From the IMG/VR virus record IMGVR_UViG_2609459856_000002: 4,322 nucleotides of DNA. One strand, given 5' to 3'. Shown in pieces: positions 1 through 3,961 of this stretch. The DNA comes from a virus. Lineage: Duplodnaviria > Heunggongvirae > Uroviricota > Caudoviricetes. Below the pieces are notes generated by a model. That model was not told the DNA's origin. It saw nothing but the letters and a program-made list of their open reading frames with translations, and ran no database searches. Every line of letters starts with the position of its first letter. The first letter of the stretch is position 1. A program made the position numbers and the translations under genes.

Positions 1-413
1 AACGCCAGGTGGTGAAGGATGCTTTTTATATTCATCAGCATAAAGGAACCACCAGTGCCGTGCGGCGGGGGGTGGAGCCGTTCGGCTTTCTGATCCGCAT
101 TATTGAGTGGTGGCAGACCGGAGAAACACCAGGCACGTTTCGCCTGGATATCGGCGTGCAGGATCAGGGCATCACTGAAGATACCTATCTGGAACTTGAG
201 CGACTGATAAGCGATGCCAAACCATGTAGCCGTCACATGATCGGCATGTCCATCAATCTGCAGACCAGCGGCCCGCATTGGGTGGGAGCCGCCAGTTATC
301 TTGGCGAAGAAATCACGATCTATCCGTATATCAACGAAACAATTATTTCCGGCGGCACCGCGCATGAAGGCGGGGCGGTCCATGTTATTGACACAATGAG
401 AGTGAATCCATGA
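1..413 (+). CDS. Phage baseplate/tail protein, P2 gpI-like; 5'-partial (frame open to the window start, stop TGA 411-413)
   Basis: The ORF frame has no stop between the window start and 413, so the gene probably begins upstream. Its stop overlaps the start of the downstream tail fibre gene (ATGA at 410-413), typical of coupled phage late genes. The gpI assignment is from position immediately upstream of a gpH-like fibre gene; I do not recognise the protein sequence itself with certainty. Confidence 0.55.
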
Positions 414-1810
414 GCACAAAATTTTATACCCTGCTGACGGATATTGGCGCGGCGAAACTTGCCAGCGCCGCCGCGCTCGGTGTGCCTTTAAAAATTACCC
501 ATATGGCGGTCGGCGATGGCGGCGGAACATTACCAACGCCGGACGCAAAGCAGACAGCACTGGTAAATGAGAAACGCCGGGCTGCGCTGAATATGCTCTA
601 TATCGACCCGCAGAACAGCAGCCAGATTATTGCTGAACAGGTGATCCCTGAAAACGAGGGCGGTTGGTGGATACGTGAAGTGGGCTTGTTTGATGAGTCC
701 GGGGCATTGATTGCCGTGGGTAACTGCCCGGAAAGCTATAAGCCGCAACTGGCTGAAGGCAGTGGGCGTACCCAGACCGTGCGCATGGTGCTGATTACCA
801 GCAGTACGGACAATATCATCCTGAAAATCGACCCTGCTGTAGTGCTGGCAACCCGCAAGTATGTGGATGACAAGGCACTGGAGCTGAAGGTGTACGTGGA
901 TGACCTGATAGCAAAACATCTTGCCGCACTGGACCCGCATTCACAGTATGCACCCAAAGAAAGTCCGACATTTACCGGAACCCCCAAAGCGCCAACGCCA
1001 GCGGCGGGGAATAATACCACTCAGCTTGCGACCACCGCATTTGTTCAGGCGGCACTGACGGCCCTGATTAATGGTGCGCCAGCCACGCTGGACACGCTGA
1101 AAGAAATAGCCGCAGCCATTAACAATGACCCGAAATTCAGTACCACCATTAACAATGCGCTGGCACTGAAAGCGCCGCTGTCGAGTCCGGCACTCACCGG
1201 AACGCCAACAGCCCCCACGGCGGCGCAGTCGGTCAACAATACACAGATTGCCACTACGGCTTTTGTGAAATCGGCGATTGCGGCAATGGTGGGTTCTGCA
1301 CCTGCGGCACTGGATACACTGAACGAACTGGCGGCGGCACTGGGGAATGATCCGAACTTTGCCACGACAATGCTTAATGCGCTGGCAGGTAAACAACCGC
1401 TGGACAATACGCTGACTAATTTGAGTGGAAAGGATGTAGCTGGTCTTCTCACATACCTTGGTTTGGGAGAAGCGGCAAAAAGGAATGTGGGGACAGGGAC
1501 GAATCAGATACCTGATATGGGTAGCTTCACGCTTTCTGTTTCAGGTACTGGATATCAAAAATTACCATCTGGTTTTATTCTTCAGTGGGGCTCAATCGGC
1601 GCACCAGGCATTGCACAGGATGTGGTAACCCATTTTCCGATTGCATTTCCAAACAGATGTCTGCGTGTTTTGGTCTCACAAGACTACACACCAGATAGCG
1701 GGGCTGTTGGTTATATTGCCTGTGCAGGTTTTAGTCCCGACCCGGTTAAATTTATATCCAGAGCCAGTACTCCTGGCCTCGGCGCTTCATTTTTAGCGTT
1801 AGGCTGTTAA
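410..1810 (+). CDS. Tail fibre protein (P2 gpH-like): constant N-terminal part (codons 1-349) fused to the currently expressed variable C-terminal cassette (codons 351-466)
   Basis: 466-aa ORF. The N-terminus [18 protein letters not shown]...HMAVGDGGG...AEGSGR has the hallmark pattern of P2 gpH-family fibre N-termini. There is an internal Ala/Thr-rich tandem repeat. The left crossover site falls in codon 350, so sequence downstream of 1459 belongs to the invertible segment. The C-terminal part carries a [14 protein letters not shown] motif that I recall from fibre tip domains. Confidence 0.9.
962..1402 (+). repeat. Intragenic tandem duplication, 2 x ~74 codons, in the tail fibre shaft (962..1183 and 1184..1402)
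   Basis: Protein repeats [73 protein letters not shown] and [73 protein letters not shown] align end to end. The DNA copies have diverged, so the duplication is old. It resembles the repeat unit common in P2-type fibre shafts. Confidence 0.6.
1446..1471. other. Left crossover site for the DNA invertase (gix/cix/pix/hix-like, 26 bp): TTCTCACATACC-TT-GGTTTGGGAGAA
   Basis: Two 12-bp half-sites with dyad symmetry (TTCTCaCAtACC versus the reverse complement TTCTCcCAaACC) flank a 2-bp core TT at 1458-1459. This matches the known architecture and TTCTC/TTATC...AAACC half-site pattern of Hin/Gin/Cin/Pin sites. A partner site lies in inverted orientation at 3314..3339. Confidence 0.75.
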
Positions 1811-1831
1811 TTTAGCTATATGGAGTGAAAA

Positions 1832-2272
1832 ATGAATTACATATATTCCGCGACTACAAACTCTTTCTATCCGCTGGAGATGAAAGAGGATTACACTCAA
1901 GCTGACTCATGGCCAGATGATGCTGTTGAAGTTGATGAGCAAGTGTATATTGAGTTTTCCGGATTACCACCAAAAGGAAAAATCCGTATCGCTGGAGAAA
2001 ATGGTTTTCCTGCATGGTCTGAAATTCCACCACCAACACATGAGGAACAGATTGCTGCAGCCGAACTGGAAAAGCAGCAACTGATTAATCAGGCCAACGA
2101 TTATATGAACAGTAAACAATGGCCTGGTAAAGCGGCTATTGGTCGTCTGAAAGGTGAGGAACTGGCGCAATATAATTTGTGGCTGGATTATCTGGACGCA
2201 CTGGAACTGGTTGATACCTCCAGTGCTCTAGATATTGAATGGCCTACGCCTCCGGCAGTTCAGGCCAGATGA
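1832..2272 (+). CDS. Tail fibre assembly protein (chaperone), cassette currently in the expressed orientation
   Basis: 146-aa ORF directly downstream of the fibre gene, with a GGAG Shine-Dalgarno at 1822-1825 six nt before the ATG. The C-terminus ...LDYLDALELVDTSSALDIEWPTPP is the conserved C-terminal signature of phage tail-fibre assembly (Tfa) proteins. Confidence 0.85.
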   Translation: MNYIYSATTNSFYPLEMKEDYTQADSWPDDAVEVDEQVYIEFSGLPPKGKIRIAGENGFPAWSEIPPPTHEEQIAAAELEKQQLINQANDYMNSKQWPGKAAIGRLKGEELAQYNLWLDYLDALELVDTSSALDIEWPTPPAVQAR

Positions 2273-2846
2273 CATTCGGCGCGGTGCTGGTATCTGTTGC
2301 CGTCACTGCGTCAATGTAATCCAGCACAGCGTTAAGTCGGGTGGTTTCTGCCTGCGTCAGCTTCCGTCCGGCCTGTAGTTTCAGTTGAATCAGACTAATG
2401 GAAGCCATTGCTGCATCAATCAGTGACTGGCGCAGTGCTTCTGCCGCGTCTACTGCGGCATTATGCTGTGCCTCAGTATCTGTCACCCATTTCTCACCAT
2501 CCCATTCATCGTATGGCGTTAACGGGGCGATAGTGGTCGTATTTTCAGGATAATCACCCGGACCTGTGATTTCTTTCGATTCTCCTGTTTCGGTGCTATA
2601 AACGATTTCACCGCGATGGTCTGGCACATATTCCCATGAGTTTAAATCCATCGAACGGCAGATAGCATAACCCGCCTTATGTGTGCCAGGGGCATCTAAA
2701 CAGGAATATGCAGGGATACCGACACCAATGGCAAGATATTCATTTGAAGTGGAAATATATTCCCGAGTTTCACCATCATAGTTATAGACGGTAATATTCC
2801 CCGCCTTCGTGGCAATAAGCTCGCTATTTAATACGGCGTTATCCAT
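2244..2846 (-). CDS. Tail fibre assembly protein (chaperone), alternate cassette in the silent orientation
   Basis: 200-aa ORF on the - strand. The C-terminus ...LDYIDAVTATDTSTAPNVIWPELPEA shares the Tfa signature with the + strand chaperone. Its ATG overlaps the stop of the upstream fibre cassette by one base (TAATG on the - strand at 2848-2844). Confidence 0.8.
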   Translation of the reverse strand: MDNAVLNSELIATKAGNITVYNYDGETREYISTSNEYLAIGVGIPAYSCLDAPGTHKAGYAICRSMDLNSWEYVPDHRGEIVYSTETGESKEITGPGDYPENTTTIAPLTPYDEWDGEKWVTDTEAQHNAAVDAAEALRQSLIDAAMASISLIQLKLQAGRKLTQAETTRLNAVLDYIDAVTATDTSTAPNVIWPELPEA

Positions 2847-3367
2847 TATGCAGCCCTCACGATAAAGTTAAATGCAATATTTCGTGGACGGGTTTCACTC
2901 CCGCCAGTATTACCGATACTCCCTCGTGAATGAAGTGTCGGTGATGGGATCAGACTCCCTCCTGTATTTGTGGCATCAAGTCCCCGTCCTTGTGTGTATG
3001 TCTTTTTGAAAATCGTAGCCAGTTCCCATTCATCTTTTGTGTCGTAACCATCATTGGCAACAACAATATGACGGTGCTTTTCCAGCATCCCAGCCTGAAG
3101 GCTCAATAAAGCACGTCCTGCATCAATACCGCGCCCGTCATCCCAGCCACGAATAAACTCACCGCGTAAATCAGGTAATTTATTTGCCGGGTAAGCCTTT
3201 GCCAGTTTCGGGTATTCTTCAGCAGAAAAAGGAGCACCGTTGCATTTCAGCCAGCCTGTTGGAGGTGTCTCAGAAGGCCACGGAACAGGCGCACCAATAG
3301 GTAATGCTGAACCTTCTCCCAAACCAACGTTTATGAAAGTGCAGAGATAATGGCTAACTGGCATCAT
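2846..3367 (-). CDS. Alternative tail fibre C-terminal cassette (Sv'), silent in this orientation; the functional part is 2846..3325, and codons upstream of the crossover lie outside the segment
   Basis: The - strand ORF ends ...ETRPRNIAFNFIVRAA and contains DLRGEFIRGWDDGRG, closely resembling the C-terminal collar-type domain of Mu S / P1 S-type fibres as I recall them (ending NIAFNYIVRLA). It has no constant N-terminal domain of its own. It is in frame with the fibre constant region across the crossover site: after inversion the junction would read ...[18 protein letters not shown].... Confidence 0.8.
   Translation of the reverse strand: MMPVSHYLCTFINVGLGEGSALPIGAPVPWPSETPPTGWLKCNGAPFSAEEYPKLAKAYPANKLPDLRGEFIRGWDDGRGIDAGRALLSLQAGMLEKHRHIVVANDGYDTKDEWELATIFKKTYTQGRGLDATNTGGSLIPSPTLHSRGSIGNTGGSETRPRNIAFNFIVRAA
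3314..3339. other. Right crossover site for the DNA invertase (26 bp): TTCTCCCAAACC-AA-CGTTTATGAAAG
   Basis: The reverse complement of 3313..3327 is identical to 1458..1472 (TTGGTTTGGGAGAAG, 15/15). The inner half-site TTCTCCCAAACC matches the family consensus; the outer half-site (reverse complement CTTTCATAAACG) is degenerate. It lies 55 bp upstream of the invertase ATG. Confidence 0.7.
3346..3351 (+). promoter_or_regulatory. Candidate -10 hexamer (GATAAT) for the invertase promoter
   Basis: GATAAT lies 44 bp upstream of the invertase ATG and 7 bp downstream of the right crossover site. Any -35 element at standard spacing would overlap the crossover site; that region (AACCAA) is a poor match to TTGACA. 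Sequence-only guess. Confidence 0.25.
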
Positions 3368-3394
3368 CCCCGGTTTTTATTCAGGGGATTGATC

Positions 3395-3961
3395 ATGCTT
3401 ATTGGCTATGTACGCGTGTCAACAAATGACCAGAACACCGATTTGCAACGTAATGCACTGAACTGCGCGGGATGTGAGCGGATTTTTGAGGACAAAATCA
3501 GTGGTACTAAGTCCGACAGACCGGGGCTTAAAAAACTGCTCAGGACACTATCGGCAGGTGACACACTGGTTGTCTGGAAGCTGGACAGGTTGGGGCGCAG
3601 TATGCGGCATCTTGTTACTCTGATAGAAGAGTTGCGCCAGCGCGGCGTGAATTTCAGAAGTCTGACTGACAGTATTGATACCAGTACCCCAATGGGCCGT
3701 TTCTTTTTTCATGTCATGGGTGCCCTGGCTGAAATGGAACGCGAACTGATAGTTGAACGTACCAGGGCAGGGCTGGCTGCAGCTCGTGCTAAAGGCAGAG
3801 TAGGTGGACGCCGTCCTAAGTTGACCACCGAACAGTGGGCACAGATTGGACGTTTACTAGAGGTCGGAGAATCAAGACAGCGTATTGCACTGATTTTTGA
3901 TGTGGGCGTTTCTACCATTTATAGAAAATTTCCGGCAAATAAGAGCAGTGAATCCCCCTGA
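3395..3961 (+). CDS. Site-specific DNA invertase, serine recombinase of the Gin/Cin/Pin/Hin family
   Basis: 188-aa product starting MLIGYVRVSTNDQNTDLQRNAL, with the catalytic serine at residue 9 (codon 3419-3421). Conserved blocks VVWKLDRLGRS, SLTDSIDTSTPMGRFFFHVMGALAEMERELIVERT and GRVGGRRPKL, plus a C-terminal helix-turn-helix, are near-identical in pattern to Gin/Pin. Shine-Dalgarno AGGGGA at 3383-3388. The ORF track starts at 3350 (MANWHH...), but family N-termini begin at MLIGY, so 3395 is the likely start. Confidence 0.93.
   Translation: MLIGYVRVSTNDQNTDLQRNALNCAGCERIFEDKISGTKSDRPGLKKLLRTLSAGDTLVVWKLDRLGRSMRHLVTLIEELRQRGVNFRSLTDSIDTSTPMGRFFFHVMGALAEMERELIVERTRAGLAAARAKGRVGGRRPKLTTEQWAQIGRLLEVGESRQRIALIFDVGVSTIYRKFPANKSSESP

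Follow-up and report, generated by a model that had tools for sequence, protein, structure and literature searches.

Can a single phage tail-fibre gene be joined to either of two alternative tips, and does the locus considered here carry what is needed to exchange one tip for the other? The question is raised by a stretch of 4,322 nucleotides of Caudoviricetes DNA (IMG/VR virus record IMGVR_UViG_2609459856_000002), referred to below as the window, that is, the whole of the DNA that was analysed. In it two pairs of tip and chaperone coding regions face one another on opposite strands, and the gene for a serine DNA invertase lies alongside (Table 1). An ORF listing combined with Pfam scans places the window at the tail-fibre end of a P2-like prophage. 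Invertase-driven switching of fibres has been known since work on Mu, P1 and e14 in the 1980s, and the type of feature is already known from those elements and from P2-like prophages; closely related copies of the present locus are already annotated in hundreds of genomes. We consider it very probable that the window contains the fibre module of a P2-like prophage in which a Pin/Gin-type invertase flips a segment of 1866 bp and so swaps fibre tips. Nothing in the window sequence contradicts such a reading.

Table 1. Features of the window, with position, strand and the evidence for each.
Feature	Position	Strand	Evidence
Baseplate gene I, 3' part	9-413	+	Tail_P2_I
Tail-fibre gene, 466 aa	410-1810	+	Phage_tail_fib N-terminal domain, E=5e-64; Gp53-like_C at residues 384-466
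Constant part of the fibre gene (Sc), codons 1-350	410..1459	+	Phage_tail_fib N-terminal domain, E=5e-64
Left 26-bp crossover site, TTCTCACATACC TT GGTTTGGGAGAA	1446..1471	.	Core TT at 1458-1459; inner half identical to e14 pixL
Invertible segment, 1866 bp between cores	1460..3325	.	In-silico inversion; collinearity with strains N96 and W12-1
Variable cassette (Sv), 116 C-terminal residues, expressed in the window orientation	1460..1810	+	Pfam Gp53-like_C, E=1.2e-13
Sv assembly chaperone, 146 aa	1832..2272	+	Pfam Caudo_TAP, E=3.7e-37; 60% identity to e14 TfaP over 102 aa
Sv' assembly chaperone, 200 aa, silent in the window orientation	2244..2846	-	Pfam Caudo_TAP, E=1.9e-30; 91% identity to e14 TfaE
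Silent cassette (Sv'), 159 codons, GLGEGSALPIGAPVPWP...NIAFNFIVRAA	2846..3325	-	Pfam Collar, E=1.2e-14; 57% identity to e14 StfE cassette
173-aa ORF with phage tail Collar domain	2846-3367	-	ORF listing, Pfam
Right 26-bp crossover site, TTCTCCCAAACC AA CGTTTATGAAAG	3314..3339	.	Core AA at 3326-3327; 25/26 positions match e14 pixR
Serine DNA invertase, 188 aa	3395..3961	+	Pfam Resolvase + HTH_7
Putative Fis-dependent recombinational enhancer, 5' end of invertase gene	3413..3484	.	Homology to P1 cin annotation
Tail sheath gene, start	4104 onward	+	Gp18 domain III

The genomic context is that of genes H and G of P2, where gpI is likewise followed by a fibre, a chaperone and then the sheath gene FI (in the order I-H-G, fun(Z), FI) and where the N-terminus and shaft of the fibre are homologous to those encoded here. 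Alignment of the constant part with P2 H gives 198 identities in 375 columns, and the protein is P2 gpH-like at its N-terminus and along its shaft. The usual H-G pair is, however, replaced in the window by a two-cassette module of the e14/Mu type, complete with invertase. P2 itself has no invertase, second cassette or partner site, and its fibre is consequently fixed. Two features of the coding regions may be recorded at this point. Within the constant shaft (approximately 980-1400, residues ~190-330) a stretch of about 70 residues is duplicated, and the motif TGTPxAPT...TTAFV...APAxLDTLxExAAAxxNDPxFxTT..NALAxKxPL is present twice, and there is also a short direct repeat, D8. The two chaperone genes are convergent and overlap at their 3' ends by 29 bp (2244-2272), and this overlap is flanked by a 22-nt inverted repeat, I2 (2182-2203 / 2304-2325), which derives from the homologous chaperone C-termini encoded on opposite strands (LDYLDAL and LDYIDAV).

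If the tips are exchanged by recombination, the position of the crossover relative to the reading frame is of central importance. An earlier interpretation, made from the letters of the window without database searches (the sequence-only reading), had put the left site inside codon 350 of the fibre gene, with the TT core forming the second and third positions of that codon, and this placement holds: in the ORF at 410-1810, codon 350 is CTT (Leu) and occupies 1457-1459. It had further stated that both sites share 15 bp inward and encode the same peptide there. This too is borne out, as the core together with 13 inner bases (TTGGTTTGGGAGAAG) is common to the two sites once the right one is reverse-complemented, and GLGE is encoded after the core at both. 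The two sites lie in inverted orientation and the left core is the reverse complement of the right, so that the locus has what defines the invertase class, namely two 26-bp, imperfectly palindromic, inverted sites with matching non-palindromic cores of 2 bp.

Scans with a 26-bp invertase-site consensus find matches in the window only at the two sites of Table 1, and in 200 shuffles they find none. The same pattern also marks the annotated boundaries of the Mu G segment, P1 cixL and the ends of the e14 segment, and the annotated crossover of P1 cixL falls within its central dinucleotide. In the right site, 3 positions of the outer half do not conform to the pattern. A third crossover site was not found in the window even when 3 mismatches were allowed, and a scheme of multiple inversions through such a site was dropped because the window holds two sites only.

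The consequences of inversion can be followed directly in silico. When positions 1460-3325 are reverse-complemented, a single ORF of 509 codons results, free of frameshift or stop, and the gene for the 200-aa chaperone comes directly after it, with an ATG that overlaps the fibre stop codon (TAATG); both outcomes had been anticipated from the sequence. The 509-aa fusion, which replaces the 466-aa fibre, reads ...TYLGLGEGSALPIGAPVPWP...NIAFNFIVRAA and ends TRPRNIAFNFIVRAA. Because the left core is the reverse complement of the right core, the product is the same whether the core bases are included in the inverted segment or left in place. Following the constant positions 1440-1459, the junction letters are GCGGCAAAAAGG for Sv and GGTTCAGCATTA for Sv'. 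The constant part can thus be joined, with the frame intact, to one or other of two cassettes that lie in opposite orientations, each accompanied by its own chaperone, and two fibre products can be read from the locus, one of 466 aa with a Gp53-like_C tip and a 146-aa chaperone, the other of 509 aa with a Collar tip and a 200-aa chaperone. The proposal that an invertase-driven crossover site lies within the fibre gene, with both orientations in frame, is supported by five observations taken together: the fit to the site pattern, the invertase gene beside the right site, the tip domains and separate chaperones of the two cassettes, the occurrence of the predicted inverted arrangement in natural genomes, and a codon phase found also in Mu and e14.

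The weight to be placed on frame preservation is a separate matter. The sequence-only reading regarded it as the property that distinguishes a genuine fibre-switching site from a chance inverted repeat, which proves to be overstated, since preservation of the frame is needed but does not discriminate. Five other inverted repeats in the window were tested by inverting the sequence between their arms, and two of them also give long in-frame fusions: I4 (1003-1018/2790-2805) continues in frame for 180 codons past the junction and I10 (1069-1080/3288-3299) for 146 codons, the I10 fusion arising because both arms encode G-A-P in frame. With arbitrary right breakpoints, some 12% give at least 100 further codons. 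Such fusions arise because the minus strand of the segment is mostly coding. The inverted repeat alone is likewise modest evidence, as an exact 15-bp inverted repeat is found in 2 of 200 shuffles (about 1%) and the window contains other imperfect inverted repeats, of 16-22 nt, that are of similar quality. These observations lend something to the idea that the sites are a chance inverted repeat, or a by-product of homologous cassettes lying head to head, and that the in-frame fusion is coincidental. The idea is nevertheless extremely improbable, and is refuted by the site pattern, which occurs nowhere else in the window nor in the shuffles, together with the exact inversion product that is present in natural genomes; it also leaves to coincidence an invertase gene that lies 68 bp away at a Mu-like spacing. 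It is the combination of site pattern, adjacent invertase and naturally flipped copies that discriminates between a switching site and a chance repeat.

The natural copies come from complete E. coli genomes, against which both the window and its in-silico inverted version were searched, with matches counted when they extended over at least 80% of the length. By this measure 142 genomes contain the window orientation and 168 contain the inverted construct. Strain N96 is collinear with the window from end to end in a single alignment piece (94.6% identity), and strain W12-1 is collinear in the same way with the inverted construct (96.3% identity). The fibre gene of W12-1 is annotated as 1530 nt, that is, 509 codons plus a stop, and both of its junctions agree base for base with the construct. 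Matches of the W12-1 type therefore establish that the predicted inversion product exists in nature, with breakpoints within the shared block of 15 bp. Inversion is seen here at the population level only, in that related E. coli genomes hold each orientation and differ with breakpoints at the sites. Outside these genomes, several P2-like phages of Klebsiella and Escherichia are better matches to the inverted version, with a query cover of 84% compared with 57% when the window orientation is used; identity of the flanks to P2-like phages from these two genera is about 96%. A close full-length match to the window was absent from the complete E. coli genomes and the phage records, the best being 94.6-96.3% identical. 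That copies with 93-96% identity are found in near-equal numbers in the two orientations (142 vs 168) suggests that switching is frequent.

The enzyme encoded beside the right site belongs to the small serine invertases, with a Resolvase domain (Pfam E=2.5e-53) that contains the nucleophile Ser9, and a C-terminal helix-turn-helix (HTH_7), in a protein of 188 aa. It matches the Mu Gin crystal-structure sequence (3uj3) over its full length (E=1.4e-92) and is 86% identical to e14 PinE, 79% to P1 Cin and 76% to Mu Gin. The spacing between its start codon and the right-site centre is 68.5 bp, compared with 67.5 bp in Mu. The basic residues of helix B, K46, K47 and R50, correspond to positions 47, 48 and 51 of Hin, whose numbering is one higher. 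In Hin, K47, R/K48 and R/K51 are the helix-B residues that contact the enhancer, and they are conserved only in the subclass of invertases that depends on Fis and an enhancer (PMC3798978); the protein in the window has the residues of this subclass. Upstream of the invertase start codon, and beyond the right crossover site, is a terminator-like hairpin with TTTTATT after it (3356-3375, + strand); it might keep transcripts of the fibre operon from running on into the invertase gene. A simple promoter scan gave no convincing promoter for the invertase (sigma-70) or for the silent cassettes.

The enhancer of these invertases lies towards the 5' end of the invertase gene and has two Fis sites with a spacing of about 48 bp. 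In the window the corresponding stretch, 3413-3484, can be aligned to the annotated enhancer of P1 cin (+19..+90) with no gaps and with identity at 56 of 72 bases, but it also encodes the conserved active-site region, and because active-site coding constrains the same bases this conservation is not independent evidence. A scan with a degenerate Fis consensus finds a Fis-like 15-mer centred at +78 both in this invertase gene and in Mu gin; the second Fis site fits the consensus loosely, with no clean match. Likeness to the P1 sequence makes 3413-3484 a candidate recombinational enhancer.

Taken with what is established for Gin, Hin, Cin and Pin, from which the cleavage chemistry is borrowed, these components suggest how the switch may operate. 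Dimers of the invertase would bind both inverted 26-bp sites (1446-1471 and 3314-3339) and pair them, probably on a Fis-bound enhancer within the invertase gene. Staggered cuts of 2 bp would then be made through Ser9 at the TT/AA cores, one half of the complex would rotate by 180 degrees and the DNA would be religated, leaving the 1866-bp segment flipped. Depending on orientation, the late operon upstream would read through the 350 constant codons into Sv and its 146-aa chaperone or into Sv' and its 200-aa chaperone, and the tip and chaperone pair that is not read, for which no promoter was detected, would stay silent. The shaft joins to either tip in frame because the core occupies codon positions 2-3 and GLGE is common to both ends of the segment. 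The likely outcome is two alternative receptor specificities in the phage population. Dependence on Fis and the enhancer, present activity of the switch in the source strain and an actual change of host range would, we infer, go with such a mechanism.

A less favourable view of the locus is that it is a decayed remnant, frozen in one state, in which the switch is dead and the two orientations found in E. coli reflect old events or recombination between prophages. The window does display a single orientation, whereas highly similar copies elsewhere occur in both, in the near-equal numbers given above. The 3 outer-half positions of the right site that are off the pattern might be taken as decay, but the site is identical at 25 of 26 positions to pixR of e14, which is documented to invert (PMC4272514; PMC12529663). 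The failure of the scan to find a clear sigma-70 promoter upstream of the invertase, and the fact that the closest relative, e14, is itself a defective prophage, have to be set against six genes that are all intact and an invertase that retains Ser9, the basic residues of helix B and the helix-turn-helix. On balance we regard a frozen remnant as very improbable and prefer a module that is still invertible.

Comparison with known systems shows how closely this invertible module conforms to them. By every measure its closest relative is the P segment of e14 (pinE, stfP/ycfK, tfaP, tfaE, stfE), which has the same order, Sc-site-Sv-tfa / tfa'-Sv'-site-invertase, the same TT/AA core, again forming the last two bases of a Leu codon (CTT) with GLGE encoded after it, and identical inner half-sites; the e14 segment is 1825 bp long as against 1866 bp here. 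When the e14 segment is inverted in silico, the fusion ends RNIAFNYIVRAA, almost the same ending as that of the 509-aa fusion from the window. There are nonetheless clear differences. In e14, a defective prophage, the constant part is truncated and inversion yields an ORF of just 262 aa, whereas here the shaft is complete at 350 codons and the module is flanked by gpI and the FI sheath gene in a P2-like tail operon that appears intact. The gp53-like cassette that is expressed in the window, moreover, shares only 28% identity with the StfP tip of e14. The G segment of Mu, inverted by Gin, has the same mechanism and layout, with two 26-bp sites flanking Sv-U / U'-Sv' and, as here, an invertase gene whose start is about 68 bp beyond the right site. 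The Mu core is TC rather than TT, and its cassettes, of about 320-330 aa compared with 116 and 159 aa, have no significant similarity to those of the window. In the C segment of P1, unlike the present locus, cin is on the other side of the segment, adjoining cixL.

The placement of the crossover within the codon can be traced through this group. In the window the TT core forms positions 2-3 of CTT (Leu350) and the junction reads YLGLGE; at e14 pixL the TT core again forms positions 2-3 of CTT (Leu), with the junction NLGLGE; and at Mu gixL the TC core forms positions 2-3 of CTC (Leu), with the junction NLGLQE. Gene H of P2, in a phage without an invertase, retains a relic of the site, TTATCGAATATC TC GGTTTACAGGAA (L013 1124-1149), with an inner half identical to that of Mu gixL and a TC core at positions 2-3 of CTC (Leu) in the junction YLGLQE. 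Mu, e14, P2 H and the window accordingly have the LGL junction and the codon phase in common, and it follows that the frame-preserving placement is inherited among fibre genes of this family, the crossover site falling on a conserved LGL motif at which shaft and tip join.

Active, invertase-driven exchange of fibre C-termini has been described in other prophages, to which the window can be likened from their descriptions. In P2-like prophages of E. coli E2348/69, sequencing and PCR showed the exchange to be active: alternative orientations coexist in the population, and the four variants of a three-repeat locus have been validated by PCR (PMC4272514). In an Enterobacter prophage (phage FRphi), the fibre was fixed in a single state once gin had been deleted (PMC13418256). 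Some of the E2348/69 and FRphi loci have three sites and three tips and undergo multiple inversions, whereas the window has only two sites.

The locus opens no new biological question, and its value is chiefly one of annotation. The Sv' reading frame runs through the right site as far as an ATG at 3367/3364, which gives the 173-aa ORF of Table 1, and RefSeq calls the equivalent ORFs of relatives (L002 3146-3664 and L001 3275-3667) as independent genes for a 'phage tail protein' and a 'gp53-like domain-containing protein'. It is more likely that these stand-alone ORFs are unexpressed fibre cassettes than that they are independent genes. Where genes with such names are annotated beside the invertase in related genomes they can be read as silent fibre cassettes, and the fibre of such a prophage has two forms. 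Both products of P2-like prophages can be predicted by a simple rule, that the core provides positions 2-3 of the Leu codon in LGL. The flipped form may have a further role. In e14, inversion joins the StfE cassette to the constant part, and the resulting protein, StfE2, reportedly prevents phage T2 from adsorbing (PMC12529663). Given the 57% identity between StfE and the silent collar-type cassette of the window, the 509-aa fibre of the flipped state might conceivably also act as a switchable barrier of the lysogen against other phages, an analogy that we consider a long shot.

Finally, short exact matches were sought in a collection of species-representative genomes. The 22-mer ACATACCTTGGTTTGGGAGAAG gave no match in this collection, and a 19-mer gave 6 loci, which is about the number expected by chance; among these loci only two contigs of Escherichia sp. 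MOD1-EC7003 match the window by BLAST. These exact-match scans yield no useful tally of the module over species. One contig, of 1860 bp (L010 1-1860), has long inverted repeats at its ends, and within these repeats are the constant fibre region's 3' end and a variant half-site, GGTTTTGGAGAA, which suggests that the MOD1-EC7003 assembly broke at an invertible segment with long repeats of the P1 type. In the second contig (L007 7540-8000) there is a related fibre whose orientation is the flipped, collar-type one.
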